From Macrostomum lignano (taxonomy: Eukaryota): a DNA stretch of 64,000 bases. Every line of letters starts with the position of its first letter. Positions within the stretch are counted from its first letter, which is position 1. Location: positions 62,001 through 126,000 of the forward strand of contig NIVC01001861.1 in assembly GCA_002269645.1 (NCBI GenBank). The letters run 5' to 3'. Below are positions 3,035 to 39,191 of this stretch, one piece after another. The translations under genes were made by a program, and so were the position numbers. The notes beneath the pieces were generated by a model. It did not search any database, was not told the DNA's origin, and was given only the letters and a program-made list of their open reading frames with translations.

Positions 3035-3590
<556 letters not shown>

Positions 3591-3721
3591 TCTGTCTACC
3601 CGCGTTTTTTGCCCGCTCTCTGCTTTTTAATGCTTGCAACTGATAAAAGCTTTACAAAAATCGGTCCCTGGGAATCGAACCCGGGCCCACACCTCTATCA
3701 AGCTCCAAAAGCAACAGCAGC

Positions 3722-6700: not shown

Positions 6701-9306
6701 TCGTCCTCGGCCAGTCGGTCGGACACCAGCGCGTCCAGCTGTCCGATTCTGTCCGATGCGTCGGCAGGCAGCGGCTTGGAGCGGCAGGCAAAGAAGGACA
6801 GCAGGCGGCACAGCTCCAGCCAGCTGCGGCCACTCAGGCTGTCCCGCAGTTGCCAGAACTCGGCGAGGCTCAGCGTCCGCTCCAGGAGTCCATCGGCGAG
6901 ACGGCGAGAGAACTCGGCCAGCAGATCCACGTATTCGGCTCCGAGCTGGTCGCGGAAGTGAAGACAGTCGTCCAGCGGCTGCCACAGCTCGGACAGAGAC
7001 AGCAGACGGGGCAGAAGCTGCATTGGGGACCCGCCTTGACGCCACAGATCCGGGAAGTGGCGGGCGAACACTTGCGAGAGCAGCGAGGCGCGCAGAAGGT
7101 TGCGGTAGCTGAGAATTGAAGGCAGTTGGGTAAAAATTACGAAACTGGGGAGTAAGATTGCTTTAAATAGAAACACTGCATGCTCAGGTCTGAACGAAAG
7201 GATGTTACGAGTAGTTCAGACTAACGAAATCATCATTTGAAGCCCTCGATAGGCTTCCGACCCCTTCACTAAGGGACCCTTTCTTCTTTTAGAAGAACAG
7301 CTACTTCTTGAGTGACGATCTCTGATTTAGACTGTAGAGAATGTCTGTTCCAGAGTGGAAGGGATGCCGGTTTTAGAGTGGGGGAAGGGATGCCTGTTCT
7401 AGAATCCAGAGTGGAAGGGATGCCTGTGCATGAGTGGAAGGGATGCCTGTTCCAGAGTGGAAGGGATGCCTGTGCATGAGTGGAAGGGATGCCTGTTCCA
7501 GAGTGGAAGGGATGCCTGTGCCAGAGTGGAAGGGATGCCGGTTCCAGAGTGGGAGGGATGCCTGTTCCAGAGTGGAAGGGATGCCTGTTCCAGAGTGGAA
7601 GGGTGCCTGTTCCAGAGTGGAAGGGATGCCGGTTCCAGAGTGGGAGGGATGCCTGTTCCAGAGTGGAAGGGATGCCTGTTCCAGAGTGGAAGGGATGCCT
7701 GTTCCAGAGTGGAAGGGATGCCTGTTCCAGAGTGGAAGGGATGCCGGTTCCAGAGTGGAAGGGATGCCTGTTCCAGAGTGGAAGGGATGCCTGTTCCAGA
7801 GTGGAAGGGATGCCTGTTCCAGAGTGGAAGGGATGCCTGTTCCAGAGTGGAAGGGATGCCTGTTCCAGAGTGGAAGGGATGCCTGTGCCAGAGTGGAAGG
7901 GATGCCTGTTCCAGAGTGGAAGGGATGCCTGTGCCAGAGTGGAAGGGATGCCGGTTCCAGAGTGGGAGGGATGCCTGTTCCAGAGTGGAAGGGATGCCTG
8001 TTCCAGAGTGGAAGGGATGCCTGTTCCAGAGTGGAAGGGATGCCTGTTCCAGAGTGGAAGGGATGCCGGTTCCAGAGTGGAAGGGATGCCTGTTCCAGAG
8101 TGGAAGGGATGCCTGTTCCAGAGTGGAAGGGATGCCTGTTCCAGAGTGGAAGGGATGCCTGTTCCAGAGTGGAAGGGATGCCTGTTCCAGAGTGGAAGGG
8201 ATGCCTGTGCCAGAGTGGAAGGGATGCCTGTGCCAGAGTGGAAGGGATGCCTGTTCCAGAGTGGAAGGGATGCCTGTGCCAGAGTGGAAGGGATGCCTTT
8301 ACAAGAGAGGGTGTTTCGTTAGCAAAACTTACTGATCGGGCTTCAGACTTCGGATGACATGCGTCAGCGTGCCAGTGACCAGAGAACCTCTAGGCCGGCT
8401 ACCCTGGGCACTGGTAGATACAGTCTCCTCAGCGAGCCTGGCGCCCCATCTCATAGACAAACGTGACACCAGACGAGATAACAATGCAGCGGGGCTGTTT
8501 CTCGAAACAGCAGTCTCAGGCGCAATAGAGGCCTCGGCCTCAGCCAGCGCGGGCGCAGCTCTGGCAGCGAAGTCAGCCAGGCCAGAATCAGCATCGGGCC
8601 CATCGTTCCAGTCAAGAAATTCGAGGCCGAATTGCACCAATAGGAAACGGGCAGGGCCCCTGGCATTCCTATGAACAGACAGGATTTGAATTGCAGAGAC
8701 CAGGTGACGAGCTTCGAACACCAAAACAACATTAGCCTGCTTGGCGAGGCGCCAGACGATATCGGAAAAGACGCAGAGAACTTCTGGCTGCGCGTTCGCC
8801 TGTTGGAAAAAGAAGTCGATTAAGGCTGGCTGCTGATCTTTTAGGCGAATATACAGCGTTGGGGAGGTCCGTGGAAGATTAAGCGCAAGGCGAACAAGCG
8901 CCTGGGCGAAGGCGCCGTCATTGACAGACAGTTCGCATACGGCAAAGAGCTGGCAGCAGAAGTCGGACCAGCCATCTTGGCTATTCGAGGTAGTCAGCAG
9001 GTGAAAACCTGGCAGCAGTGTCAACGGTCTGACCCGATTAATGACAGTGCGGAATGGATACCTGGGCTGGTGGTAGCGCACAGAATAAAAGACTTGGCCC
9101 TGTGGTAGCACCAGGCGTGTCTGAAAACCAAATAAGTTTCTCGAAAATTCGCTAGGTTGAACTGAAGCGCGAAAAGCGTCACAGGTGACAGTGAGCTCCA
9201 GCTCTAGGTTTCTGTAATAATCATGCACATTCCCAATGCTTGAACTCCTCGAGGTGGCAGTTAGGCCAGAGAAGGGCAAGTAGAACTTTTGCACCTGGGA
9301 ATCAGC
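3722..9306 (-). CDS. Multi-exon gene (>=723 aa) with a degenerate NACHT/STAND-like domain; 5' exon not located
   Basis: Exons 9306-8333, 7108-6369, 4959-4785 and 4004-3722 join in matching phases (2, 1, 2) with GT-AG sites and end in TGA. NACHT-like order: HLLTTSNSQDGWSDFCCQL (Walker A position), LYIRLKD, LIDFFFQQ, NVVLVFEA (Walker B position), GSPMQL (GxP-like). Gene structure is well supported; the domain call is tentative. Confidence 0.7.
4325..4634 (-). mobile_element. tRNA-derived CORE-type SINE, copy 1
   Basis: On the minus strand: A-box-like TAGCCTAGTGA, B-box GGTTCGATTCC, CORE-like TGTGTCCTTGAGCAAGACACTTAACTC...CTGTAAAA, and a (TTA)n tail. Near-identical copies lie at ~40.7 kb and ~61.3 kb. 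Confidence 0.85.
5133..6140. repeat. 23-bp minisatellite (intronic)
   Basis: Unit GATGCCTGTTCCAGAGTGGAAGG, roughly 40+ copies. Confidence 0.97.
7343..8297. repeat. 23-bp minisatellite, same family as 5133-6140 (intronic)
   Basis: Same unit GATGCCTGTTCCAGAGTGGAAGG in the same orientation. Confidence 0.97.
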
Positions 9307-14489: not shown

Positions 14490-15269
14490 GAATTTTAAAT
14501 CCAGTGTCTCTGTGCATGCAGCTGGACACAAGATTACACAAGTCTGTTGCAAAAGCTGGTTCAAGACGACCCGCAGGAACGCATGCAACCACTTCGGTCG
14601 GGTATGGTCCACAGAGATTTCACGCGGACACAACTCCGCCTGGTTTGCGGGGCAGCTGAACAGGTGGGTAACTTTATCGGGTTCCAACAGCAGTCTGGAG
14701 TCCGGAGTCGATCCGTGCCGACGCCCTAGCTGGATTGTCGACTCTGGCTTGAAAATCATGGAGCAGTTGGCATAAGCTGGATCAGCGCAACTGCGCCTGC
14801 AGGATGCACAGATGGATCTCAGGCCGCGGTCGCCAATGACACAGTTAATTGTGGGGCAGGCCGTCCAAAGTGTCCTAAACATCCTCAGCACGATCCCAGC
14901 AGCCGCGTCTCAAGGATGTCCCTAGCCGGAATCAGAATCCAGTTCACGTTGAAGCACACCGCCCGTGAAAATGAAGGTCTTCAAGAGCCTGTGCAGAAGC
15001 AGTGACAGGTGGTTGTTGTAGATGAAACCAGTGTAGGACACCTAACTCGTTCGGAGCTTGAACTGGAGCGACAGAGAGGAGATTGCGCTGGCGATTGAGC
15101 AGCCAGCCGTACTTCACAGTGGGGATCAGCTTTGGAAGTTAGAGCAATGCAGCCGGTGATGCAGCGGATGGCCGGCGTTCTGGGACGGTCTGCAGTTGAG
15201 TCCAGAAGGTCTGGGAGATGAAGGGCCTCAGACAGACACGGCGTAGTCTAGCAGACTTCTGTGAAGCGC
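14490..15269 (-). mobile_element. Decayed non-LTR retrotransposon (I-group-like LINE), 3' part, interrupted by the Gypsy element
   Basis: Frameshifted motifs RSLLDYAVSV*GPFISQTFWTQLQTV, QNA-AIRCITGC...HCE and C-terminal HLFSCPAN. It continues beyond the LTR element as ADKVQKRTSILRYLAGTT (28175-28255). Confidence 0.72.
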
Positions 15270-15924
15270 TGAAGTGACACATTTTGGCTCTAGAAAGTTC
15301 CCATCCAGATGGAATGTATTTTAACCAACGAATGCGCTCCAACTAGCAAAAGCTGAGGACACGACCCCAACCTCAACCAATGAAAAACAGTTATGTACCA
15401 TCCAATGCGATCAAGACTGAAAAGTACTATAAAAGCTCATGTTAACCAACCAAGAAGCTCGCGCCTCCCTGGCCTTTTCTCTCTTCCGCCTCTCTTTCGC
15501 CCTTCTCCTATCTTACCTCTTTGACTACTTTTGATTGACACTGCCAGGGTCTCGACCCAAACACTAAAACTGATAAATTGACTCACTAAAACTAAAACAA
15601 CAACCAACCCACGTTCCACAATAGACTGAACCTTCGGTTCCCCCGAACACTTAGAAACCCCTTGGAACTCGAACAAAACGAGCTTCTTATTTGGAATTCC
15701 ATCTTAGACATTATATTTTGTAAGATAACATCTCGAGATTGTGACCATCAAATACAACGGTCTGTAAGTTAACATCAAGTGTTTGCATCATCAGGAAAAG
15801 TCAGTTGAATCCGCCGCCTCAGTTATTTGGCTCTCACATTGATATTTGAAGTAGAACAAGAGCCATAGAAGTGAGAGACCAGAAGAAGAACAATAAAACC
15901 CACATATTATTTTAAAATATTTCA
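15270..15924 (+). repeat. 5' LTR
   Basis: TG...CA termini, TATA-like CTATAAAA (~15427) and AATAAA (~15893). It differs from the 3' LTR by 8 substitutions and 1 indel by manual comparison. Confidence 0.95.
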
Positions 15925-15925
15925 C

Positions 15926-15939
15926 TGGTTCCCTGACCG
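15926..15939 (+). promoter_or_regulatory. Primer-binding site complementary to the tRNA-Glu 3' end
   Basis: TGGTTCCCTGACCG lies 1 nt after the LTR end and is complementary to ...CGGUCAGGGAACCA of tRNA-Glu (recalled consensus). Confidence 0.85.
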
Positions 15940-18405
15940 TACTTTTCCTCCGATGCGTTTCACCACAATAGCCGCCATGCCCTACATGGGGTAGACAGCT
16001 ATAGGCGTGGCTGATGGGTGCGAACGGTTGGACTGGCTTCTCCCCCCCTGATCCCCTTTGAGCATTCGAGACTGTCAATAATACATATTCGAAGAATGAA
16101 TCGTAAATCACGAGCTCTTAAATTTAAATTCAGAATTCAAATCGGTTCTAAGTTTTGTCCAGTGCACTGAGACCTGATTCACGTCATTTCAAATTCAAAG
16201 GATCCATGAAAGTCAATACATTATCGTTCCGGAACAATTACAATTTCAATTCAATTCAAGAAACGTCGTCGAACGTCTGATATCGAGTTCTTATTCTCAA
16301 GCCTCAGAGCTTCAATGCAGAAATTCAATTCAGTTATTCTGATCCTCAATTGTTCAAGCTTCAAAGCTTCGATTTTTCTAAGACCGCGGCATCATCAATT
16401 GTTCAAGTTTATTTAATGTTGGACGCCTCTTTCTTCACTGCTTTTCCACAGAATAGCAACGTTTGCTCTGGACTTCCTCATACAAGTATGAGACTCTCCA
16501 AAGCGACTGCGCCATTCGTTTTTCCTCCTCGGTTTTTCCCAGTGTGGCCACATCCAGAAAACTGGCTTATCTCAGATTCTCTGCCCAGTTAAGCGCCCGA
16601 AAGAAAGAACAAAAACGCAAAAAACTTGACGAGCTATTCAAACGAAGTCACTACAGCAAATATTAATCAAACTCTGGAGCCACCAATTTCTTGCTGTCAG
16701 AAAACTTCTTCGCTTATCAGACAGGCTGCTTGCCTGACCATTCATTATCTTCCTTGATTAAAGCCCACGATTCGCTGGTTGCCGAGCCTGCGTGCTCCAT
16801 CCGGAAAACCTTTTTGCTTATTTTTGCAGACCGCTTGTCTAGCCTTCCATCATTTTTTCTTGATTAAAGCCAAAAAACTTACTGTTTGCAGACTCCATGA
16901 GCCCCATCCATCAAATCCTTATCCACCCAAGTTTTTTTTCGGATTGTTGATTCTGGTGGTTGCCCTTTATAGATCATTTTGATGTAGAGATTAGGATGCT
17001 TGGGAATTTTCTTGTGTGTTTAATCAACTTCAGTGCCCTCCAACAAATCCTTATCTTAAACAAGCTGCCCAAGTCAGACTTCGCGCGCATACTTAATCTC
17101 CCAGAGAGACCTCTTTTCTTGATTAGAACCATCACTCAACTTCATCTCCCACGAGAAAAATCTTTTTCTTAATCAAACTGTCCAGGCCAGCCTTATCATG
17201 CCACTTCATCACCGGCCCAGCGATGTTTTTTCCGCAATCTCTGACAACCGACTTCCCCTGGGATCTGTCCCTAGCCCCCTCCCGTTTCGCATGATGGATT
17301 AAGACCAAAATAACCTTAACTTTTCTTCCATCTCCCTATTGCCAGTGGCCAGAGCCGTTTGATACCCCACAGAGCTTGTATTCTAGTTATTTTGCCAGTT
17401 ATTCTGCTCTCGGCTTTACAAAAAACTACATTAACGCTATCTATTACCTACCTTATTAAAATAGAACTTTGCCCATATTTTCCACCTTTTCTTAAAAGCA
17501 GCCTGCGTTGATTTAAATAGTTAAACAGGTTGGTTTGGTCGTGTATTTTGCAAGCATCTACACACAGAGAGGGTGGTCGCGGCACCAACAGTATGTAAAT
17601 ATATGTACACTAATAAGTAATTCAATTATCGCTAGTATATCTACAAAAAACTATACCAAAAATTACAAAAACATGAAAATTAAAATTAAAGATACATCAA
17701 CCTAAAGTCAGTTATTCCCCAAATTAAATTACACCAGAATAAAGTTACCCTAGCGTCGTCCCGCTACAATCTCCTCCTCGACTTGCCGGAGTTCCTGCCA
17801 CCATTCGAGGCGGCGCTCACACCACTTGCGGACGGGTGTGACTAGCCGCCTGAACGCTGACAGGAGCCGTGAACCCCGCCGAGCACCCCGCTTCGTGTCG
17901 CGGGGCCAGCCGTCCTCCAGCAGCAATGCGAGTTCCCACAACCGCCGACAGAGCCACCACCATTGATCCGCCGTCTTCTTCGTCCTTTCGAGTTGGGCTT
18001 CCATAGCCATAATGGGTTGTCGAGCAGTCGCGGTTCGGGAATGGTTGAATTGACAGAGTCGCGTAGGAGTAGCAAACCTTATCCGTTCCCCTTCAGTTTA
18101 ACCAATATATGCGCCCCGCCTCCCAGGCATAGCTTGGAATTCCCCCAACCAACCAATGAGGACGCCGCAAACTCTGTTCCCAACTCCCTTCAGAATTTGC
18201 CATCAACAGCACTATTCTGCTAGCACTTTTTGCAATACTATAAATCGACAGGATCCCGCACTTTTGGGTTAATCGCCTCTCCAGTACCACCGAAACTGAC
18301 TGCAAGATCGACATTTCGCATTTACAGCCTCTACCGACTCAGCAAACACCGTAAATACTCTCAATTGTGTATTCTTACTTCAATATGGCCGGATTTCAGC
18401 ATATC

Positions 18406-19042
18406 CATGCCCTCATCAAGGTCGATCCTCACCGCTTCTGATGATGTCCCGCTCTTTGACTGTATGTGTGAAATGTACTATTGCCAACATCGCCGCAATT
18501 TTTTTTATTACCACCCCTCCTATCTTTCGCCCTTCCCGTTTCCTCGCACTGTTAAGCCTGCTATTCCTGATTCCCTACATCATAATCTCTTCAATTGTAA
18601 CGGACGCTTCGATCTGGTAGCCGACTTCGCCTTTACCATTGCCGACTCCTACCTATCCCGGATCCACGACCACTGCCAATGTTCTATTCCGGGACAGATA
18701 GACAATATTCTGTTCCACCTCGAGGGCCTCCATACCCCACCCCTGCGAGGAACCTTTAAGTCTGCCATCGTCGAGCTAGCCATCCACCGCCAGGAGTTCG
18801 AGGTGCTCTTCCGCACCCTGCGTTGTGTCAATTTCCACACCGCTAATCCTCTCAACTACGAATATCTCCGCCGAATGTACCGTGACAAAATCGATGGCAT
18901 GGAATGCGAACGTTATGATCAACTGCTCCAGAGCTTTGTTCCCCCCGTTTCCGACTCACCCTCGAGCCTGTTTAACCTTGCCTCACACCAAACTCCGCCA
19001 CCACTTCTGGTCGACCTGGACGCGCCATCGCGGCAGTTCTAG
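18406..19042 (+). CDS. Accessory ORF upstream of gag, unknown function (~211 aa from first ATG)
   Basis: Open frame 18230-19042 with ATG at 18406 and Cys/His clusters (CMCEMYYCQH, HDHCQC). An overlapping frame continues to 19265. No family recognised. Confidence 0.5.
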
Positions 19043-19828
19043 AGGTCAGGCCATTGAAGCTCACTTCCTCACCCTCCCTCGGTTCCACCGGGAACACATA
19101 GTTGGCCATCCCGAGTTCACCGACGACCCCTGTTTTGAAGTTAGCGACTCTCCTTGCCCCACACTCGAGGACACATCACTTGTGCCGAAGAAAACGGTTC
19201 ACCACCGCGACTACCGCTGGCAGGTCCTACGCTTGGATTGCCTCCGCATACGGTGGTCGCCTTAATTACCTTATTCCCTCCCCCTAAGCCGCAATTTCTA
19301 TGGCCTCAGCACCAACCCCCCTCGGGCCCTGTAAATATACTATACTCTCTCATTGTCTTTTGAGCACAGTTTCATTTCCAACTCACTTTCTGTTACCTTC
19401 TCAACTGTATTGTGTAAACACTATTTTGAAAATGATCCTTTGATCGACAAAAATTATAAAATTCAAAACCTCAAAAAGCACGTCTCCATTTATTTTTCTT
19501 CGCTTCATCTATGCTAGACTATTCACATAGTGTTTTCGTAGCCTGCGACAAACTCAAAATGATCATTAGATCGCAAAAAAACAATAAAACCAGGAAAACA
19601 CAAAAAACAATACAATTGTTTATAGTTCATTTCGTATAACCCGTAGTGCTCTTATCATGTTAAATTTGCAAAATGATCAGTCCGATCAATAAAAATTATA
19701 AAATTTAAAAAATTAAAAATAGAAAATTTACAAAACTACGTTTGCTTAAATTATGAAATTAACCCCCTAGCTGAAACTGTCAGAAAATTCAAAATTCAAA
19801 TGCGAAATTCAAAAGCCAGAACAATTTC

Positions 19829-19902
19829 TCAGAAGAAAAAACTGCCGACTTCAAGAAAAAGAAAACTGCCGACTTCAAGAAAAAGAAAACTGCCGACTTC
19901 AA
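19829..19902. repeat. Short tandem repeat (3 x ~24 bp) in the retroelement leader
   Basis: AAGAAAAAGAAAACTGCCGACTTC-type unit x3. Confidence 0.85.
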
Positions 19903-20444
19903 TGATACAAATTCGATTTTATTGGCCACCACTGATGTCCGTCTAGTCCAACATTCAGGAGCTCTTTTATCAAATTCAGTTTCATAAAAGTTTCAGAACC
20001 GATTAAAAAGACAGTTCAATTCAAAATTTCAGAGTTCAAAACTTCCAAATTCAAGGTTTCAGAACCGATCAAAAGGCAGTTTAATTCAAAATTACTTCGA
20101 TTTTCAAAGCTCGTTGCAGATCACAGTTAAAAAAATCACACAGTCTCTCTTTTTCTCCCTTCCCCAGCCAGTCCGCCAACCGCAACCCTGAAAGCCATTG
20201 CCGTTTGCTCACTTTGAACTTGACACTCTCTCTTTATTTTGCTATCAGTTACATTTCTGTGATATCGTTCCCCCGAAATTATTGATCGTATTCTTGTTGA
20301 TGACCTCACCTGTCCGAGATTTACGTTCCGGACCAGTATTCCAAAGCTCAAATCTTAACAGACCTCCTGAACAAAATTTAGAAATTTCCGACCGTAGTAG
20401 GCGAACAGCCTCCACGAAATAGTTCACCAGTTCCTAATCTGTTT

Positions 20445-23400
20445 GTGCCAGATAACGTTGAGTTTACTAACCCTCTTGCGGATCATTTTGAACAAAACCG
20501 TACACACTCGCCAGCACCCAGTTCCATTCTAACAGACGTGGACGAAACAGTTCAACAAGTCCCAAACGCTATTGCTGAAGAATCTACTCTAGACATAGCT
20601 GATCAGGAAGCCGCTCCCCATGTTGATGCTGCAGCCACAAATGCTGTCCGCGAACTCACTGATGTTATGAATCGCAGTCTACAATTGCAATCGAATCATC
20701 CCGTCTCAGCTACTGCTCTTGCTAAAATTCGTCAATCCCTGAAAGGAATCGACCAAATGCATGACTTCCGTTCCTTCACTGAAGAGTTCGACTTGATCAC
20801 ATGCTCCTTTGGACTATCGGAGAACGCAAAGATTCGGCTCTTCCCGCGACTACTGAATGACCTTCTTAAACTCGAATACAGTCGCCTTTCTGCCGTGGTC
20901 CAAGCCTCTTATCCAGCCACCATTGAGGCACTATCTCAACGCCTTCGGGAAGTAACCATTGGTTCGGCTCTAACGCTGCATAATGCAACAACCCGGAAGC
21001 AACAGTACGGCGAACCGTTCCTGTCCTATTTCACCGACATTCGTCGAAAGCTCCGGTCAGCTATGCCGGAAATACCGGAAGAATTTCCGGAAGATGCCGG
21101 TCCGGAAACACTACCCGCGAACCAAGCTGTCATCGACCAGCGAAACCGAGACTTTCTCGCTACCCTGATGGCTACGACTATCAACAATGCTCTACCCTAC
21201 ATCAAACGAGAACTCTTGAAGCAAAATATCACCACGGAAAGTACGCTAATCAACAAGGCCATCCGCGCTGAACAAATCCGCGACTCCACCATGGACTCTG
21301 ATGGCACTGACTTGAAGGCTCTGACTGAGCGCCTAACAACCCTAGAGAAAACAACGAAGGAAGCCAATCAACAGGTAGTTGCCTCTCTGCAAACACAAAC
21401 CAAGCCACTCACTGCTAATGTGCAACAAAAGCCGACTTGTTTTCATTGCGGTCGACCTGGACATTATGCCGCCGACTGTCGTCGAAGGAATGACGAACAG
21501 CCTCGTCCCTTCCGACCTAACTCTGACGATCGAAGAAACGCAGCTCACTACGGCTCGGACGCCCCGCGAAATCGCTACCAGCAGGTGCCGCCACGGTTGA
21601 CCTGTAACTATTGCCGGAAACCAGGACACTCTATTAACCAGTGCCGACTACGAGCCCAACGTACACAAGGCTACGGTCCACCGGCGACACAACAATCACG
21701 ATTCCCACCTCGTCAAGACTACAGAAATCGGCCTCAGCAACGCTATCCGCCTCGATACAACGACACCAACAATCAACGACAAGCTCTGAGATTCGCGCAA
21801 CAACAATATCCTCCAATACGCGCCATCACTGCTCAGGATCCTAAAACGTCCCACCCAGGATGGAATCAACAGCCGCAGATTGGATGGACGACTCACGACG
21901 CTCCCGAGTCTGCCCAACTGATGCACATCGCTACAGTTGATGAACGCCCACCGACTTTTGGAAACGAAATTCGCTACTCTGGAGACGCTAAGCAGCTGAA
22001 ATCTTTACTCAAAAAACCGACTACTGCCGCTGCGACTATCAACTCTATTCGCCTTTGTACGGTTGAAAGAGTGACTAACGCCTACACTCCACCGAACAAC
22101 AACAACAACCGCAAGAATACCGTGAAAGCTTCCGTTGGAATTCGCCAATCACTACTGGCACTTTTTCTCCTTTGCCTAGTAACTTCACTCTTCTCACTAG
22201 CCAACGCTACTCCGGTAACGACGTCAACTCCACCATCGATCGAGAGACAATCTCACGAGGGCTTCATTGACACGCCAATGGTCTGTCCGTACATCCAGAT
22301 CCCACGAATCTTTACGATACCACACGAAATCCGTTGTGAACAGCTCAAACACCAAACCACACCGACACTTCCGTTAAAACTAGAACTCTACACAACTAAT
22401 TTCTACAGAACGCACATTGCTGGCTACTCACGAGTAGTACAACCACTTCTGAGTATTATCAAAAATACTTCGAAGCCTAACAAATTCGTCTGGACGAACG
22501 CTGCCCAAACAGCCTTTGAAAAACTGAAACAACTTCTCTCTACGGACATACTACTGGTTCATCCAAATCCGCGAAAACCGTACTTCCTGCACACTGACGC
22601 CTCGGATACCGCCATTGGAGCAGTACTCTCACAGCTAGATGACAACAACCATCAACGCCCGGTTGCCTACATCTCTAAGACGTTAAGCTCAACTGAACAA
22701 CGCTATTCACCGATTGAACGCGAAGCATACGCCATCTATTGGGCAATAAAGAAGCTACACGTGTTCCTCTACGCTTCTTACCAACAGTTCCACGTCTTCA
22801 CTGATCACCAGCCACTTAAGAGACTATTCAGCGACAAGCAGCCAATTTCAAAACGACTTCAGAAGTGGATTCTAGCGATACAAGATTACAACTTCACCCT
22901 TAACTACGTGAATGGCAAATCAAATGTAGTAGCAGACTGCCTTTCACGCATCTTCAAAGTCTGTCAGATACAATCGCTGTCAACATTCAACGGACTGCAG
23001 GCTGCTATTGATCAAGATCCACTATTGTCTACAATCAAAGCGCTTCTATCGGAACAGTCACCCACACACGAGCTGTCCAAGAAAGATCAACAATATGTTC
23101 GCCGACACCTGGCACGTTATTTCCTGGACGGAAACACCCTGTACTTTGAAGATGACGAAGGACGAAGCCGCCTCGTGATACTAACACGCTATCGTGAAGC
23201 TCTTTTGACAAGCAACCACTCGACAGCCCTTGGTGGTCATCTAGGTCACCAAAAGACAGCAGACAAAATCAGTCACTTCTATTACTGGCCTACACTACGA
23301 CAAGATGTCTACAATTTCGTTAACAACTGCAAAGTCTGCCACAAAGCGAAAACAGCACCTCGACTGCGACCACTGCACAAAGCCGTAAAATTCAACGAGT

Positions 23401-24425
23401 TTTTCTCTCCTTTGGCTATTGACCTTGTAGGTCCACTGCCACCAGCTTCACACGGCCGCGACGTCTTCAAGTACATACTCACGGCCCAATGCGGCGTTAG
23501 CAAATTCCTGTTCACTATCCCGCTAACTGAGACAACTTCTGCAACTATCTGCAACAACCTCTTCAACCGTGTGTTCGCTTTCGCAGGACTACCAGCACAC
23601 ATCATCTCAGACAATGGACCCCAATTCATCTCGCAAGAATTTCGAGAGTTTATGGGTGCCCTTGGAATACACCTGATCTACACCTCGGTGTACCAACCAT
23701 CCAGCAACTTCGTCGAACGCGGACACAAGACACTGAAGCAAACTCTTACGGCCTTCGTCCATGACAAACCAGATCTCTGGATTTACTTCCTACCTGCGGT
23801 GACACTAGCAATCAATACCGCCGCCCACTCAACGATAAACGAATCACCATTCTACTTGTTCTTCGCTCGAGACTTTCTGCCACCCAACGCACGTATCATG
23901 GAACACCAGACAACTGCATACACGGACGTTATTAAACCAGTCAATTTGACCTGTTCAGCTATTTTGCTTGCCAGAGAAGTCGCCAAGGAACTTCTGCACA
24001 ACTCAGCTGAACAGCGCGCTGAAAACTCTGATAAGAAGACCAACAGCCGCTACATACGCCCAGGTACACGATGCTATTTGGATGTCTCAGCAACGAAGGA
24101 GACAAAATTCTCCAATCCTTATCGTGGCCCAATGCGTCTACTAGCATGGCTCTCCGATCAGAACGCACTAATTTCTGACGTCAACCGGCCAAGCGAACGA
24201 CCAATCGTGATACATGCCTCCAAGCTGAAACCATGGCCTGGAGATGGACTCAGCGCTGGACCTAGTCACCTACCTGAGTTCACAACTGATGACATTCAGG
24301 TCCACCACAACCATCGGCCGCCATTGAGCAAGTCCATCGCGCTGCAAACCACGTCCACTGATGAGCCACCAGTCCAGCCACAGACGCATGGCTACAACCT
24401 AAGATCGAAGAACAAGAAGTTGTGA
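20445..24425 (+). CDS. gag-pol: Gag / env-like fragment / RT thumb / RNase H / integrase polyprotein (1326 aa)
   Basis: Two CCHC knuckles (CFHCGRPGHYAADC, CNYCRKPGHSINQC), hydrophobic LLALFLLCLVTSLFSLANA, TNFYRTHIAGYS (RT thumb), LHTDASDTAIGAVLSQ and VFTDHQPL (RNase H), HLGHQKT...YYW...CKVC, AIDLVGP / SDNG / FVER (integrase) and PYRGP. No D[ST]G protease or YxDD motif. Confidence 0.93.
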   Translation: MPDNVEFTNPLADHFEQNRTHSPAPSSILTDVDETVQQVPNAIAEESTLDIADQEAAPHVDAAATNAVRELTDVMNRSLQLQSNHPVSATALAKIRQSLKGIDQMHDFRSFTEEFDLITCSFGLSENAKIRLFPRLLNDLLKLEYSRLSAVVQASYPATIEALSQRLREVTIGSALTLHNATTRKQQYGEPFLSYFTDIRRKLRSAMPEIPEEFPEDAGPETLPANQAVIDQRNRDFLATLMATTINNALPYIKRELLKQNITTESTLINKAIRAEQIRDSTMDSDGTDLKALTERLTTLEKTTKEANQQVVASLQTQTKPLTANVQQKPTCFHCGRPGHYAADCRRRNDEQPRPFRPNSDDRRNAAHYGSDAPRNRYQQVPPRLTCNYCRKPGHSINQCRLRAQRTQGYGPPATQQSRFPPRQDYRNRPQQRYPPRYNDTNNQRQALRFAQQQYPPIRAITAQDPKTSHPGWNQQPQIGWTTHDAPESAQLMHIATVDERPPTFGNEIRYSGDAKQLKSLLKKPTTAAATINSIRLCTVERVTNAYTPPNNNNNRKNTVKASVGIRQSLLALFLLCLVTSLFSLANATPVTTSTPPSIERQSHEGFIDTPMVCPYIQIPRIFTIPHEIRCEQLKHQTTPTLPLKLELYTTNFYRTHIAGYSRVVQPLLSIIKNTSKPNKFVWTNAAQTAFEKLKQLLSTDILLVHPNPRKPYFLHTDASDTAIGAVLSQLDDNNHQRPVAYISKTLSSTEQRYSPIEREAYAIYWAIKKLHVFLYASYQQFHVFTDHQPLKRLFSDKQPISKRLQKWILAIQDYNFTLNYVNGKSNVVADCLSRIFKVCQIQSLSTFNGLQAAIDQDPLLSTIKALLSEQSPTHELSKKDQQYVRRHLARYFLDGNTLYFEDDEGRSRLVILTRYREALLTSNHSTALGGHLGHQKTADKISHFYYWPTLRQDVYNFVNNCKVCHKAKTAPRLRPLHKAVKFNEFFSPLAIDLVGPLPPASHGRDVFKYILTAQCGVSKFLFTIPLTETTSATICNNLFNRVFAFAGLPAHIISDNGPQFISQEFREFMGALGIHLIYTSVYQPSSNFVERGHKTLKQTLTAFVHDKPDLWIYFLPAVTLAINTAAHSTINESPFYLFFARDFLPPNARIMEHQTTAYTDVIKPVNLTCSAILLAREVAKELLHNSAEQRAENSDKKTNSRYIRPGTRCYLDVSATKETKFSNPYRGPMRLLAWLSDQNALISDVNRPSERPIVIHASKLKPWPGDGLSAGPSHLPEFTTDDIQVHHNHRPPLSKSIALQTTSTDEPPVQPQTHGYNLRSKNKKL

Positions 24426-24729
24426 ATGATCAAAAATCTTCTAAATTTCTTTTCTCCTTTCTTTTCCTTAACTGACAATATTGCTTTCTCTTCCTTTCTT
24501 TCTCTTCTTCTTTTCTTTCCTTCTTTTCTAACAATTTTGCTCTCTCTCCCTGCATTGCGACACTTTACGTGACTATATTGACGAACTGACACAAATGAAC
24601 TTTTATTTTCTGTTTTATCAACAAAAAGCTACAAAAATTTTCTTTCTTTTCCCTCTTTACATTGCAGAGCTCACACGCTAAAACAACATTTTGTGTATCT
24701 ATTGCTTTTCTCCCTTTTTCCTTTCTCTT

Positions 24730-25659
24730 ATGGATCCATTTTCGCAACCAGTGGATATCCGACCACAGTTAAATCATGATCTTATTTGCCTCGCAACCGT
24801 TGTTGCTTGGTTCACTGAAGCAATATTTTATTCTGAAACTATTGGTGAATCCCAACGGCTACGCATGGCCTCCGCTTTCTTCTCTCGTTTTTATGTTATC
24901 CGCCATCATCGCTTTTATCCTAAGATGCTCCGCGTCCTGCGAATTAGTCTATTTGGTGTGCTGCGTCGTACTCACTCACGACCACGTATACAGAACTTTT
25001 CTCCCACTATGACTGGCGTTCTACGCCGCAGCTTCGTACCAATTATACATTTTCTTTTCTCTCCTAATATGTCTATCGACGATTTCTTTCAACTCTCTGC
25101 TTCTACTCTCCCTCAATCATGCCTGCGCTTTAACCAAGACACTTGGCCTTTGTTGCTTTCCTCTCTGCGCTACCCATGGCAACAATTCCGCCATGATGCT
25201 GCTAATCTTTCGGCGCAAAAGTTAACATCTACGCTCCAAAATTATTTAACCTCCTTCGATTATCTCGCCCCTTATGTTTATCAAATTTTTGCTCCGTTTT
25301 TTCCCCGTCCTACTAAGAGCGCTATCATACGCACGCTAAATCGTCTGTATCCGCACAATTTTTTCTTCACCCACGCTGTTTTCATTCTCTCAACGCGTTC
25401 AAGAAGCTTTGCTTTTATAATTATCGATTTTTATTCTCGCTCGGTAGTTGCCCATACTATCTTCCCTTTCTCTTGTCCTCCGCTTCGTCGATATTTATAC
25501 AATATTCACCGTATACGAAATGCTCATGTTGGCTACCCTAACACCTTGCCAGAGTATGCCGCTCTTCATACCTTCTCCATCAAGCGTATTAAGCATTCTC
25601 CTCCTTCTGATCTTAATATTAATTTTGCTCGACTGGCATACGTTTTTTATATGATTTGA
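24730..25659 (+). CDS. Accessory ORF downstream of pol (~309 aa), weak integrase-fold resemblance
   Basis: Uninterrupted ORF from ATG 24730 (MDPFSQP...) containing THAVFILSTRSRSFAFIIIDFYSRSVVAHTI. Confidence 0.6.
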   Translation: MDPFSQPVDIRPQLNHDLICLATVVAWFTEAIFYSETIGESQRLRMASAFFSRFYVIRHHRFYPKMLRVLRISLFGVLRRTHSRPRIQNFSPTMTGVLRRSFVPIIHFLFSPNMSIDDFFQLSASTLPQSCLRFNQDTWPLLLSSLRYPWQQFRHDAANLSAQKLTSTLQNYLTSFDYLAPYVYQIFAPFFPRPTKSAIIRTLNRLYPHNFFFTHAVFILSTRSRSFAFIIIDFYSRSVVAHTIFPFSCPPLRRYLYNIHRIRNAHVGYPNTLPEYAALHTFSIKRIKHSPPSDLNINFARLAYVFYMI

Positions 25660-25867
25660 TTCACCATCATCGCTCACTATTTTAATCCGCTTTTTCTCCA
25701 ATATTGAGCGTTGAAACGCCACACATTTTTTCCCAAAAAATACTCACAAATATTTTCCGTTTCTCTGCCTATTACTCCTCCGTTATTTTGCGCTAACCTT
25801 TGTAAAGCCTATGCTATTTTTTTCTCTGTTATTCTGTCAACTGCTTTTTCGAACGTCATCACGCACT

Positions 25868-26130
25868 AACCTGCCCAACCCTGCTCAACCCTGCTCAACC
25901 CTGCTCAACCCTGACCTACACGACTGCTGCTCTGTGCCTGGTCTTTGCCAATTGCTGCCCCTGGCGCTGCTGTAACCAACTTCAAACAACAACCTTGCTC
26001 TACACAACTGCCGCTCTATGCCTGGTCTCTGCCTACTGCTGTCTCTGGCGCTGCCTCAGCCAAAGTCGAACAACAACTTTGCTCTACCCAGCTGCCGCTC
26101 TATTTTATGCCTGGTTTTTGCAAGTCGCTC
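25868..26130. repeat. 10-bp (ACCCTGCTCA) x4 followed by a degenerate ~87-bp tandem duplication
   Basis: CTGCCGCTCTATGCCTGGTC...CAACAAC(C/T)TTGCTCTAC recurs about 2.3 times. Confidence 0.8.
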
Positions 26131-26699
26131 GACCTCTGGTGCTGCTTCCACCTAAGTCAACCAACTAGCACTAAGGCATATGGCTCAACAACGTCTGTTC
26201 TTTCATGACTGCTCAGTCTGCTCATCTGACAACTTCGGCATCACATCATGTGGTGGCCCTGAAAAAGGCCGTTGTAACGTTCAAAGGACGGCAGAGCCGG
26301 CAGAGCAGCCAGGGCGCTAACACGGCCGCTTCTACCGACTCCACCGAAGGCGCTTCCGCGTCGGCCGCGGCGGCCGGTGTTTCTGATGGGCCCGCGCGAC
26401 AGCAACAGCGACGGCAACAACGATAGCACTGTTGGCAGACCGAGCACTGGCCCAACAGTGACAGTAACACTAGTGCCCCAGCACCACCAGGACCACGATA
26501 GTGCAAGTCCAGCGGACGTCAGCTTTATCACAATGCTCCTGCGACTGTCGTGCTAGATCTCCTAGCAGAAAGCGCAAGTTCTTCATGGTACTCATGATGC
26601 TAATTAGAGTGGGAATTAATTTGACCAAAAACACTTTCGGTTAAAAAAATCACCTAACTCTCCTCGTTCTGTTTTAGTTTGGTGTTATATACCCCTTTT

Positions 26700-26959
26700 G
26701 GGCCTTTTCATATTACCAATTCCAGAACCAGAATCGGTTCGGAATTCCAAGAAAAACAGCAGTATAACTATTAAACTCTGTTAATATTTGACTGCCTTAA
26801 CAACCTAAATTAGCACAATTTTTCACTTTCTTCTTGGCGATTGTCATTCAATAATAAAAACTGTATAGCACGTATCTCCCTCTAGTTATGGAGACAAAAA
26901 GTTATACTTCACAAATTGGTTCTGGTTCTGGAACCAGAGCAAGCAATATGAAAAGGCCC
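26700..26959. mobile_element. PIF/Harbinger-like MITE inside the Gypsy 3' region
   Basis: TIRs GGGCCTTTTCATATT / AATATGAAAAGGCCC, internal inverted CCAGAACCAGAA, and a 3-bp TTT flank on both sides. Confidence 0.75.
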
Positions 26960-27518
26960 TTTGACTGTACAATTTTTCCTGGAATTTTCACTATTTCATG
27001 CTCCCTATTTAAAAGATTTTAACCTCATAGCTTGTACATATGATTTATTAACTGCGCGGCTCCTTGCTACAACCACCCCAACTTTCACTGTATAACGATT
27101 TTTATTACCTTCCTTCTAACTCAAACGCGTTTTCATTTTAAGCTTGTGTCGCTAAACCCCCGTTTTGCTCTGTACACCTATTTTATCGATTTTTTTGGTT
27201 AACCCTCGCTACGTTTTATTCCATCCTTGCTTAACTAGTTTAGCTTCGCCTAACTAAAGGCCCTCTGCGCTATCCCTTCTTTTGCTATTTAGACTGATGT
27301 TGTACTTTAACCTATGTTACCTTGCTTAAATTGGTTCCCTTTTACTCAAACATTTTTGCTAACATTATTCACTGCGCACTATTTTTTTCTGCAACAACTT
27401 TTCTCGTTTAATACAATGCGTTATCTTTTTCTGCAATTTTATCAATTTTAGCCCCCTGCTATACTTTTTCTGTTGTTATGCGCTCGGAGGGCCTCGCTTC
27501 CCCAAAAAATAGAGCGAA

Positions 27519-28174
27519 TTAAGTGACACATTTTGGCTCTAGAAACTTCCCATCCAGATTGAATGTATTTTAACCAACGAATGCGCTCCAACTAGCAAAA
27601 GCTGAGGACACGACCCCAACCTCAACCAATGAAAAACAGTTATGTACCATCCAATGCGATCAAGACTGAAAAGTACTATAAAAGCTCATGTTAACCAACC
27701 AAGAAGCTCGCGCCTCCCTGGCCTTTTCTCTCTTCCGCCTCTCTTTTGCCCTTCTCCTATCTTACCTCCTTTGACTACTTTTGATTGACACTGCCAGGGT
27801 CTCGGCCCAAACACTAAAACTGATAAATTGACTCACTAAAACTAAAACAACAACCAACCCACGTTCCACAATAGACTGAACCTTCGGTTCCCCCGAACAC
27901 TTAGAAACCCCTTTGAACTCGAACAAAACGAGCTTCTTATTTGGAATTCCATCTTAGACCTTATATTTTGTAAGATAACATCTCGAGATTGTGACCATCA
28001 AATACAACGGTCTGTAAGTTACCATCAAGTGTTTGCATCATCAGGAAAAGTCAGTTGAATCCGCCGCCTCAGTTATTTGGCTCTCACATTGATATTTGAA
28101 GTAGAACAAGAGCCATAGAAGTGAGAGACCAGAAGAAGAACAATAAAACCCACATATTATTTTAAAATATTTCA
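27519..28174 (+). repeat. 3' LTR
   Basis: Direct repeat of 15270-15924 with the terminal TG mutated to TT. Preceded by purine-rich AAAAAATAGAGCGAA. Confidence 0.95.
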
Positions 28175-28399
28175 GCGCCTCATGTAAGTGGTGCCGGCCA
28201 GGTAGCGCAGAATGCTTGTTCTCTTCTGGACTTTGTCCGCTAGGGTGAAGACGTCTCAAAAAAGACAGCTAAATTGGGGTCGAAAATGATCCTCATAATT
28301 TTCAGGTACAGCGCTTGCGGAAGTGGCGCACCGTTTGATATAAACACGCAGTTAACGCGGGTTAGAAAGGTGGCCGTAAATTTTAAAGTTGAGAAAACT

Positions 28400-30400
28400 G
28401 CATCCACTCCTACGAGGCCGACCCTCCCCGTGGCAGTAAGCATGCAGGGTGGGTGGGACGCTGACGCTTCTTCCCGGGCCGCCAAAGCGAACCGTCCCTC
28501 CCGGCAGCATGACCCCGCGGGCAAGGGTGAGCACGTTACTGAGGGCGGAGCCGACCGACGCCCAACGCGCAGCACCAGACGGCGTGGCCTGTTCCAGCGA
28601 GCAGCTGCAGTGGTCCGCACCGCCAAAATCAGTTAGCTGAAGCGAAAGGTCGCCGGGACGCTCAGGCGCACCAGTTCGTCCAGGGACGGTGAGGACGTCC
28701 CAGCTAACTGGGCCCAACCCCTTGGGGCAGGGCTGACTGGAGACGATCCGCCTGCCAAGACGGCTGGCTGTTCCAGGGCATTGGGCCACTCCGAGGTGGA
28801 AGACCCTGTCGCCGGTGGGCGAAGGGCGGCGAATGTCGCCTACTCCCTTCCGACTGGTCAGGGGTCGATCCTCTGTTGAAGGCACTCACGAACGACCGCG
28901 TTTTTCTAAACTTTCCCAGCTGTAGTAAAGAGACCTGATCGCTCGGTCACAGAGAGCTCTGAAGAGACTCTAGAGCTCATGCTCAGCAGTTTTTCCCTAA
29001 ATCCCCGACCTAGCAGGGCCCGCCTGACAACACCGTGAGAAGGCATGGCCTAGCAAAGCCTTTTATCACCAAAGACCACATTACTATAGAGCGGCAAGGT
29101 CCTTTAACTTGCTCAAGGCGCCTGGGCCCGATGGCATCTACCCAGCGTTCTTGCACGTGGCGGTAAAAAACCAACGCTTTTTTATTAAACCTCCTTTGTC
29201 GTCTCCTCCGAGCTTTGTGGAACTGGGAAATGTAACATTTGCATGGAGAGAGGCCCGGGTGGTCTTTAATTTATCCCAAGCCTGGGAAGAGCGACTACCA
29301 ATCGCGTATGGCCTTCAAGCCTATCTGCAGTCTCCCCTCTTTCTGATTTAAGCTCCTCGAAAGGCTGGTGCTTTGTCGCCTGCTCTCGGTCGAGCTGAAG
29401 CGCTTCCCACTCCACAGAACCAGCACACCTTCCGTGCGGGCAGGTCTACTGAGAGTGCCCTCCGTCATCGTTTACTTGGCGAGGGCCGTTCTTGGCAGCG
29501 GCTTTGCCCGTTCGCTTTTCCTGGACATTGAGGGGCCTTCGAAAATGTCATCTTCGAGGTCTTGGTAGAGCCCTGGAATCCAGGGCCACCCACCCTCACC
29601 TTGTCCGGTGGATCATGCTCATGATCCGAAACCGCACTGTTGGGGCCCACCTGAACGGCAGCTCAAACGGCGCATGTCCAGAAAGGGATCCTCAGGGCGG
29701 GTTACCCCTGTTCTCTAGAACAATGTCATGGATGAGTTGCTTTGCAGTGCTCTTCATGACCCTATTCTCAAGGTGGGCTATGCCGATGACGTGGGACCGC
29801 ATATGTCGACCCTCGATTTCTCGGTCGACACAACCAGAAATTTGCTGGAGCGTTAGGCAAACCAGATTCAGAAACTACAGCGGTTATATTTACCAACAAA
29901 CTGCTCTGGACCATGAAGCCCTCGCCCTCTGCCCTCTATATGGAAAGAGCATTTCTCTGCCGGCGCCCTTCTGCGGGCCACCGGGCCCCCATCCCTACCT
30001 CGGTGGTCAACTCCCGCGTTAAGCGCTGGGCTGACTCCGAGCACCTCCGCAGGTGGCACGACACTCGGAATTGCAGGAAATACCATGCTGCCATCCCCTG
30101 TTCCCTCCCCCTCCTGCGTAGAGCCCTCCTCAGGCTCAACCACAGAGACCTCAGGGCTCAGAGCAGTCAGCATGGCCCTCTCCGGGCATGGCTACTTCTC
30201 TCACCACCGCTTCCTTCAGGGCCAGGTACCCGAGAGCGGTGCCCCTTCTGCCGCTCAGGCAGTGAAAACGCTGAGCACTTTGGCATTGCCCGGTCTTCAC
30301 CAGAGACCAGGCTCATTCAACTCGGATCAAACCCGTTAAGTTCTCCCTGACGTTTGCAGGCCCGCGAGAGCATCCTGCTGCTCGCCCAGTAACTTCAGGG
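28400..30400 (+). mobile_element. Decayed non-LTR retrotransposon (R1/LOA/Tad-like) ORF2 remnant
   Basis: Frameshifted motifs in order: GWDADA (APE end), VRTAKIS*, KAPGPDGI (29115), FLDIEG[A]FEN (~29520), PQGG (~29690), GYADD (~29778), SGHG and CPFCRSGSENAEHF (CCHC, ~30241). Confidence 0.85.
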
Positions 30401-30559
30401 ATACGGGACGAGCTAAGTTCTTTCCCACCGCCAGGAGGACAGGCAAGACGGACGGATCCCTCTGAGCGACATCACTTCGACGGAAGCTTTTTATCGCCAG
30501 GGGCTCGCGGAATAGCCACGGTCTCCTCCATCTTCTCGCTGCCGGCCTGACGATGTTCC

Positions 30560-36700: not shown

Positions 36701-38504
36701 AATTCCCTCAATAAGCCTTCTCAGCTAGATTCTAGAGGGTTACATGTAAGCCAGCATTTTTTAGTATACTATTTAAGAGTTTTGCTATTTTGGCATACTA
36801 TTTTGGTATACCACTTTAAGCTCAAGAATTTTTTGGTATACCATTTTGAGCTCAAATATTTTTTGACATACCACTTTAAGCTTAAGAATTTTTAGGCACA
36901 CAAACTACAATAATTTGTTTTTAAAACTGCTTGCACATGTTAACAACAATGAGAGTTTTTTAAAATGCTATTTTTTATATATAATACTAACAGTACTTTT
37001 GAGGATAAAATGTAAAAAAATGGTTAATCTACATAAATCTTATTGTTAATAATATTTTAACATATAAGACATTACAGAAAAGATTTAGTTTAAATGATAT
37101 TTTGTCACAAAATTGAAAACATATTTCTTTAATAGTTCCTTAGTACAATAAGGTCCTTTATTGTTGCAACTGCAAAAAAGGTGGCATACCATTGGGGTAT
37201 GTTTTTTCCCATAGACAAGAGGCATTTTTTCCAGTGTACCATGCTATACTATCCAAACACTAGCTTCTCAGTACCTTGAAATAATTTATACAAATCAAAT
37301 AAAAAAGCACATTATCTTAAGAACTAATTTCTTCTGTTTTATAAATCACCTTATTCAAGTAAAATTTTCATAGACAAAGATGTTCCTTATAAATCCCTTT
37401 TTTCTTAAAGTAACATAAGGACAAAACAAAATAAAGCCTTCACAAAAATAATAGGCATTCCTCTAAATAGAAAGCATCTCTTAGATACCAAATGTCCTCC
37501 AAATAGCAAGCATTTCCAGATGGCAAGCAAACCTATATAGCAAACATCCCTTAGATAGCAAGTATCCCACAGATAGCAAGTGGCTAATGCAACAATTTTC
37601 TGAGCTAGTGCAATAATCATTTTTGCATATAGTGCAATAATTATTTTTTATCAAGTGCTTCATTTGATATTGCACTATCACTATGCAATATAAAAAACAA
37701 TGTTGCACCCTAAGAGTTATGGCAATGGTTGTGGCTATTATATTATACTTTAAAATTTTTGGCTATGGCCCTTTGCTTAAGTCCCGTCCCCATTTTCATA
37801 AAATTTGCCTAAAAATAAGATATACCATCCAATAATTTTGAATTAAAAAATGGGGCTTCACCTTGGCTAATGAATGCCTAGACCTAAGTATCTAGATTAC
37901 AAATGCAAATGTTAGTGTTGCATCAATAGGATCTTAAATATAGTTATAGCCAATGTTAAGGTTGCAGAAGTCATAGACTTCTATGTATAGTAGCTATTTA
38001 GGATTTTTAGTTTGAAAAATTCACCAAAGTTTGTGTTTATCTAGTTCAGTCATAATATTTTATAATGCTATCAACCAGGAAATTTATAATTTAAATAGCA
38101 AACTCAACTATCTAAGTTAGAAAAATATTAAATTGCAGACACATCAAGTTATTTTAGATATCTGTTATCTTGGTATATAGACCTATAGTATATAGCTAAA
38201 TAAGAGTCTTTGGAAAAAGCTATCACAAGCTAATATATCTTCATAGTTGTAGCTAAGGGAGCGCATATCTGTAGCTGTGGATGTAGTTCTGATAATGCAC
38301 TAGTTTTTAGTGTATTTGTGTCTAGTGATAGACATCAATAGAGACAGCATAGGACCTACACCAAGCAAGCTAGAGGCAATCACCCCCAAAGGTATAGAAA
38401 ATCTCACTGATTAATCATTGATCATCATGATAAAAACAGCACTAAAACCAACATCCTATAATCTATGCAACTTCAAGCCTGCAATAACAATTATTCCCCA
38501 GCAA

Positions 38505-39191
38505 ATGTCGGCACTCATTGACAAGTCAGTCTGTGTGCGGCTAACTCCAGCTTTGCTGGCCTTCCTGCGCAATGCCGCCACAGCACCGGATGGCCAGCTG
38601 ACCGCAGACTGTCTCAGCAGTATTAGACGCATCCTAGATAGTGTCGAAAGCAACAATGAAGCCAGCAGCTGCGGCGTCAGTTTCGCACTGATTAAATCGG
38701 TGCGCGACTGTCTGGCGTCGAATGCCAAACAGTCGCCGCCGCCGCCTCCACTGTGGCGCCTGCTAGTCGGCAGCGAATTGCTGCTGCCTAAGCCGCCTGA
38801 TCGGCCGCCGAATCCGGAGCTGGCAGCCCGGCTGGAGCGACTGCGAGCTGAGCAGGCGCAACGCGAATACGATCGAATGACCGCCGATGTTCGCTCGACG
38901 CCGCTGGGCAGTTCGTATCGTAATCGACAATTCCATGATGCTGACGACAGTCTTGGCAGCCAGTTGCGCATGGTGAACAGGCAGCTGGCTACTGTGGTTA
39001 ATTTTCTATTGACAGTTGGGGCGGCGTTCGCTTTCGGTTACAAGGCCTGCGAATTGGCTAGCAGCGAGCGTTCGGCCCCATTGGTGTACAAAATGGCCGC
39101 AGGCTTGCTGCTGGCCGCCGTTGTGTTCTTTGCCGATTTGTACTTTGTTGTTAAGCTGGACTATTTGTCTGGAAAGAAGAAAGCTGATTGA
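38505..39191 (+). CDS. TMEM199: V-ATPase assembly factor TMEM199/Vma12 (single coding exon)
   Basis: PNPELAARLERLRAEQAQREYDRMTADV, two C-terminal TM segments (VVNFLLTVGAAFAFGY; LLLAAVVFFADLYFVV) and a KKxx-type C-terminus KKAD. A TTCCCCAG acceptor lies 3 nt before the ATG. Confidence 0.92.
   Translation: MSALIDKSVCVRLTPALLAFLRNAATAPDGQLTADCLSSIRRILDSVESNNEASSCGVSFALIKSVRDCLASNAKQSPPPPPLWRLLVGSELLLPKPPDRPPNPELAARLERLRAEQAQREYDRMTADVRSTPLGSSYRNRQFHDADDSLGSQLRMVNRQLATVVNFLLTVGAAFAFGYKACELASSERSAPLVYKMAAGLLLAAVVFFADLYFVVKLDYLSGKKKAD

Follow-up and report, generated by a model that had tools for sequence, protein, structure and literature searches.

In a 64,000-nucleotide stretch of the Macrostomum lignano genome (contig NIVC01001861.1, positions 62,001 to 126,000 of the forward strand; hereafter the window, from the first letter of which all positions are counted), we characterize a long terminal repeat (LTR) retrotransposon at 15270-28174. 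We estimate a probability of about 0.7 that this copy is a recent, defective, singly deleted member of an approximately 17-kb Ty3/gypsy family of M. lignano with the gene order GAG-ENV-POL. Protein comparisons support a single in-frame deletion that joined the N terminus of an envelope protein (Env) to the thumb of the reverse transcriptase (RT), with the loss of most of Env, the protease (PR), and the RT core. The length of the parent element is an estimate based on the corresponding gap in a sister family, represented by the protein P0004.

The element is a genuine LTR structure. Its 5' LTR of 655 bp (15270-15924, + strand) runs from TG to CA, with TATAAA at 15428 and AATAAA at 15892, and contains no full three-unit heat-shock element. 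The 3' LTR (27519-28174, + strand) ends in CA, and the 4-bp target-site duplication (TSD) GCGC borders both ends, at 15266-15269 on the left and 28175-28178 on the right, with no strand assigned. A preliminary description, made from the sequence alone, had reported an intact TSD and LTRs of about 98.6% identity. Both hold. The computed identity is 98.8%, as 647 of the 655 sites in the alignment agree, and the LTRs differ by 8 substitutions and 1 indel. The 3' LTR starts with TT and not TG. Six of the eight differences between the LTRs are transversions, which is odd for neutral decay and may reflect consensus error. The insertion is recent; we dropped its dating because there is no host rate and consensus errors are possible. 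As also described previously, a primer-binding site (PBS)-like 14-mer starting with TGG follows one base past the end of the 5' LTR (15926-15939, + strand). It would presumably pair with tRNA-Glu, and the 64-kb window was found to contain no tRNA genes. A weak polypurine tract (PPT)-like stretch with 13 purines in 15 positions directly precedes the 3' LTR (27504-27518, + strand). The element thus has the LTR pair, the PBS after the 5' LTR, and the PPT before the 3' LTR that characterize Metaviridae (PMC7879559), given a PPT that is weak and a tRNA identity that is presumed.

Between the LTRs, one frame on the + strand is free of stop codons from 20382 to 24425, amounting to 1347 codons from stop to stop. 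The 1326 amino acids given earlier are counted from a GTG, and the open frame itself stands. In a Pfam scan this frame matched zf-CCHC, RT_RNaseH, Integrase_H2C2, and rve, and it matched neither a protease nor RVT_1. It contains no D[ST]G, and its sole [YF]xDD is FEDD, in the linker between RNase H (RH) and integrase (IN). These results agree with the preliminary description in the absence of protease, RT core, D[ST]G, and YxDD and in the presence of RNase H and integrase, both of which have kept their catalytic motifs. The RT thumb and connection together with RNase H occupy 22401-22889 (+ strand; PF17919 at amino acids 704-804, PF17917 at 729-836), and integrase, with an HHCC finger, a D-D-E core, and a tail ending in YNLRSK, occupies 23190-24425 (+ strand). 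From the pol order PR, RT, RH, IN, the window copy has only RT thumb, RH, and IN.

The Gag part of the frame (20382-22151, + strand) carries two CCHC knuckles (21438-21479 and 21603-21644) and a capsid region that is homologous to relatives but gave no Pfam capsid match. Gag had been called intact, which is doubtful: the knuckles are present, but the probable true start, an ATG at 20300 that opens MTSPVRDLRSG (20300-20422, + strand), is in a different frame from the long open reading frame (ORF) and runs into a stop at 20420-20422. The relatives P0004 and P0011 begin with MKLRSG, which resembles this start. In the window sequence Gag is thus probably broken near its start, through mutation or assembly error. 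The open frame provides weak evidence of selection. At the rate derived from the LTRs, about 25 substitutions are expected in the long ORF, which would remain free of stops with P = 0.38 under neutrality, so that we do not take its openness to prove selection. The probability of 4 kb without a frameshift is 0.046 at face value, with a range of <0.001 to 0.93 as it is based on a single LTR indel.

A signal-peptide-like hydrophobic segment of 19 residues follows Gag (amino acids 591-609; 22152-22208, + strand). It has a basic N-side, ends in A-N-A, and is the only such segment in the window ORF according to a Kyte-Doolittle scan, in which no hydropathy window after amino acid 620 exceeded 1.2. 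Downstream of this segment the frame contains 4 glycosylation sequons. The next approximately 64 amino acids, PMVCP...LYTTN (22209-22400, + strand), are the putative N-terminal remnant of an Env ectodomain of the glycoprotein B (gB)-like class III type. The 89-amino-acid piece before the junction aligns to 10 of 60 stored proteins, and outside the close sibling described below its best match is the start of the P0004 Env (32 of 72 identical, E = 1.6e-12). An Asn codon at 22398-22400 (+ strand) marks the deletion junction and fits both Env (LYxxN) and the RT thumb (NFYR). The jump of the frame into the RT thumb had been placed correctly near 22395-22403, where LYTTN is followed directly by FYRTHIAG; it had been read without Env, overlooking the remnant to the left of the junction, nested between gag and protease. 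On the Env side, the junction Asn is present in all 8 alignments that reach this position. On the RT side it is found only in 4 sequences of the P0004 family, and 6 other RT matches differ. The short microhomology suggested earlier for the junction, ACTAAT(TT), is plausible; of it, protein homology supports the shared Asn codon only. The missing stretch comprises about 1422 amino acids (about 4.3 kb) as measured on P0004, a sister family. The window copy does not hold the full RT, integrase, and Env ectodomain with transmembrane segment that together define an intact element. A splice origin of the junction was also considered, since the sequence there includes CTAAT, resembling a branch point, and CAG; it was rejected because both overlap the junction on the retained side.

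A search for longer proteins with the window ORF gave 2 matches among 4156 candidates, both from M. lignano. P0004 (PAA86625.1) of M. lignano is a single ORF of 2852 amino acids, ordered Gag, signal peptide, Env, transmembrane segment, PR, RT, RH, IN, with hydrophobic segments at 659 and 1483 that are about 820 residues apart, DSG at 1632, and YLDD at 2073. It belongs to a cluster of five sequences, three of them full-length (P0004, P0010, and P0011 are single ORFs of 2852-2859 amino acids). The window ORF aligns colinearly to P0004 residues 158-741 (33% identity) and 2127-2851 (58%), and P0004 738-2158 gave no match to the window. With colinearity on both sides of the junction and identities of 33% in Gag-Env and 58-61% in RH-IN, P0004 represents a sister family and not the direct parent. 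The sibling P0003 (UniRef A0A1I8HYC8) is far closer, with 188 of 193 Gag residues identical over amino acids 108-300 and integrase blocks identical at 144/151, 105/108, and 85/86 positions. It keeps the Env transmembrane segment, a protease (DSG at 1526), and the start of RT, none of which match the window. Because this near-identical protein retains these parts, the family of the window copy evidently has less-deleted members. The in-frame deletion proposed earlier is thus upheld, the missing parts being present both in relatives and in the close sibling. Pattern searches for loci of distant relatives gave 0 from 442 and 0 from 103 matches. Separately, P0017 (MEE4246962.1), a Gag-Env retroelement protein, is filed in a bacterial metagenome bin (Kangiellaceae) and is probably eukaryotic DNA.

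Profile and model comparisons assign the P0004 Env to a gB-like class III fold, of which the window retains only the first approximately 64 residues. With P0004 660-1505 as the query, 50 proteins were obtained at E ≤ 0.001. A Pfam scan of 28 of the 48 new proteins detected Monjiviricetes_fusion or Glycoprotein_B at E ≤ 0.01 in 19. The match passes the curated cut-off in 5 of these 19, and in 9 of the 28 such a match is followed by a protease match in the same chain. A profile of 31 sequences built for the P0004 Env matches herpesvirus gB chains (E = 1.7e-14). The structural model of this Env has a mean predicted local distance difference test (pLDDT) score of 66.8, with the Thr-rich middle unmodelled. 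Its match to gB in the PDB has E = 1.2e-13, although TM-scores are modest, near 0.33; it also matches a nyamivirus glycoprotein G at E = 6.3e-21. The Pfam match of the P0004 Env by itself is weak (E = 0.069), and its Atlas score of 0.88 to class III fusogens is below the reliable range and serves as a lead only. At about 1001-1150, P0004 has a Ser/Thr-rich, mucin-like Env insert that is unfolded in the model, and RxxR occurs at 1022 and 1192.

These features suggest how such a polyprotein may mature. The parent would produce one Gag-Env-PR-RT-RH-IN polyprotein, as seen in the relative P0004, in which an internal signal peptide after Gag would direct the gB-like Env ectodomain into the endoplasmic reticulum (ER) and the Env transmembrane helix would halt transfer, leaving PR-RT-RH-IN in the cytosol. 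The deletion may have arisen by a template switch in reverse transcription or by later microhomology repair. If the window copy is translated, RH-IN would trail the Env stump into the ER lumen because past amino acid 620 no hydropathy window above 1.2, and hence no stop-transfer helix, is present; nor would there be a protease to free RH-IN. Given this predicted luminal routing and the lack of both a stop-transfer helix and a protease, the window copy presumably supplies no usable integrase. It cannot copy itself. A full-length sibling could copy it passively, as the LTRs, PBS, and PPT-like tract are kept, and a single event is most likely. A template switch in reverse transcription yields a singleton junction, as does later repair, and a unique junction is therefore no proof of a deletion after insertion.

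Alternatively, the junction could mark a multi-copy, non-autonomous subfamily that is copied in trans by way of its cis signals, in which case its own proteins would be irrelevant. The presence of LTRs, TSD, and PBS-like and PPT-like signals, the youth of the insertion, the existence of a protease-bearing sibling, and the occurrence of related full-length ORFs in several copies would all suit such a subfamily. However, none of the proteins of 740-2358 amino acids among 8000 candidates match the Gag-Env part, and the five short matches among 671 candidates are all to generic RH and do not cross the junction. These negatives are weak in that the window's own ORF is also missing from the same protein collection. 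A 27-nucleotide junction pattern occurred 0 times in metagenome contigs and 0 times in viral contigs, a search that is insensitive, and five LTR, PBS, and junction motifs were absent from 5 text supplements of PMC12801592 (here and below, the accessible part of that source), whose family consensus may lie elsewhere. Twenty of the 24 sequencing runs listed (8 studies, one organism) contain a fraction of 0.44-0.69 of the words of 20300-24400, which is uninformative on the junction, and no RNA run with these words was among the runs listed. Overall, we consider such a subfamily unlikely. We are more doubtful still that the junction identifies a replicating defective-interfering sub-lineage of a 17-kb errantivirus equipped with the two accessory frames described below, ORF-A and ORF-B. 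Such a sub-lineage would have lost Env, PR, and RT at a single stroke and be carried by full-length helpers, it may contribute Gag or accessory proteins, and its RH-IN would be diverted to the secretory pathway.

Collapse or mis-joining of distant repeat parts during assembly is a very unlikely source of the junction. The 5' frame break, the TT at the start of the 3' LTR, and the six transversions in eight LTR differences may be consensus errors, and the published M. lignano assembly has been termed redundant (PMC12801592), but the join preserves both frame and colinearity, falls on a residue common to both sides, and is situated between matching TSDs, and self-comparison found no duplication near it. 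As one of two possibilities, the preliminary description had put forward a semi-autonomous lineage, which selection would maintain as a provider of Gag and integrase and which would depend on a helper for PR and RT. A frame of 1347 codons free of stops, along with the catalytic motifs kept in RH and IN, would fit such a provider. Its probable Gag start, however, is out of frame, its signal peptide without an anchoring stop-transfer helix would keep RH-IN apart from Gag and out of the cytosol, and its stop-free frame is compatible with neutral decay; we consider this proposal highly unlikely. Several observations weigh against our preferred interpretation of a singly deleted copy. The gene model P0003 is a chimera that also takes in laminin and omits the RT core, so that no fully intact member of this exact family was seen. 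The probability of an unshifted frame mildly favors constraint or a younger age. Assembly error could account for the 5' frame break and for the LTR differences, most of which are transversions. A deletion is in frame by chance in one of three cases. In addition, a hydropathy scan is the sole source of the proposed topology, and the single event is deduced from indirect signs and base rates.

The internal DNA of the element outside gag and pol amounts to 7,468 bp, a correction of the approximately 7.6 kb stated earlier, and it does contain extra ORFs as claimed. ORF-A encodes 211 amino acids from its ATG (18407-19042, + strand; 272 codons from stop to stop, beginning at 18224) and ORF-B encodes 309 (24730-25659, + strand). 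Each is longer than the longest frame of every one of 300 dinucleotide shuffles, both regional and local. ORF-A aligns with a piece of P0003 (63 of 98 residues identical, 78 of 98 similar) and is more diverged than Gag. It has no Pfam match and one PHROG match at E = 0.43, and its single-sequence model, with a pLDDT of 38, is unusable. For ORF-B, no match was obtained in Pfam, PHROG, or Atlas. Both probably represent genes that the parent family carries, in which ORF-A may be longer or spliced. Upstream, 17738-17836 in the frame of ORF-A matches the sibling model at 21 of 33 residues, with stops intervening before ORF-A. Tandem arrays (10 bp x 4.4 and 84 bp x 2.2) are located at 25870-26103, just past ORF-B.

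Outside the element, two stretches of the right flank, 28590-28685 and 30217-30432, match parts of the gene model P0015 that resemble a non-LTR retrotransposon, and the element may have inserted in or beside an older repeat; ORFs of this flank gave no Pfam match. An uninterrupted frame of 258 codons at 38415-39191 contains a Vma12 domain (V-ATPase assembly factor, E = 2.7e-23) and is a host gene. Many minisatellite arrays with periods of 4-118 bp occupy 3035-8298 and 39266-62962, and they account for many of the long open frames outside the element.

The value of this deleted copy lies in pointing to an oversized Gag-Env-Pol parent of approximately 17 kb, with two long extra ORFs, in a tractable model flatworm. 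A gB-like fusogen embedded in a Gag-Pol polyprotein implies that membrane topology must govern maturation. Should the junction prove to be multi-copy, an enveloped retroelement of invertebrates would have a defective-interfering form that occurs in nature. Our literature search found no precedent for a non-autonomous, RT-lacking, Gag-encoding element and, in the source portions accessible, nothing on the approximately 17-kb parent family.

In defective proviruses, and in non-autonomous LTR elements with internal deletions, enzymes are lost whereas LTRs, PBS, and PPT are kept. The window copy does likewise. The 137 LTR families of M. lignano classified previously were obtained by RT-based mining, in a report in which the word "envelope" does not occur (PMC12801592). 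The same work describes the genome of this species as a hidden allotetraploid. GAG-ENV-POL elements with an HSV/gB-type Env were described in Nematoda, Bryozoa, and Platyhelminthes by Chary and Hayashi (PMC13524379; statements on this work refer to its accessible part), with 93 POL and 51 ENV hits of Gag-Env-Pol order in M. lignano and nine listed flatworm elements of this kind, one of them from M. lignano. That survey excluded truncated elements and stated the entry mechanism of gB-carrying errantiviruses to be unknown. The words "polyprotein" and "fused" are absent from its main text, and the topology argument is our own. The PBS of the window element matched 0 rows of the errantivirus table in the supplement to PMC13524379. 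By position only, ORF-B is similar to CERV, the accessory protein and RNA-export factor of Cer1 from Caenorhabditis elegans (PMC10309623, accessible part).

The window element shares gene order, gB-like Env, and flatworm host with the GAG-ENV-POL errantiviruses of PMC13524379: the Env remnant lies between Gag and the RT thumb, the full order is present in P0004, and the assignment to gB/class III is made through the Env of this relative, of which the window has the first approximately 64 residues. It differs from them in its deletion, which took the greater part of Env along with the protease and the RT core. We use "errantivirus" in the broad sense of PMC13524379, and the window copy has no RT core for a tree. 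The genus Errantivirus in the ICTV sense, a monophyletic clade in which env lies downstream of integrase (PMC7879559), does not accommodate the element, which has env upstream of pol. Mlig_errantivirus_2 is likewise a multi-copy family of the ENV_HSV type from the same species, with 16 copies, an LTR of about 864 bp, and a length of about 10.6 kb (PMC13524379, supplementary file 1). By contrast, the window family has an LTR of 655 bp, an inferred length of approximately 17 kb, another PBS, and two extra ORFs, and it is not Mlig_errantivirus_2. The Gag-Env-Pol architecture is thus already known in flatworms, including M. lignano, the window family is not the one listed, and the window copy is probably an ordinary defective copy of a described kind of element.

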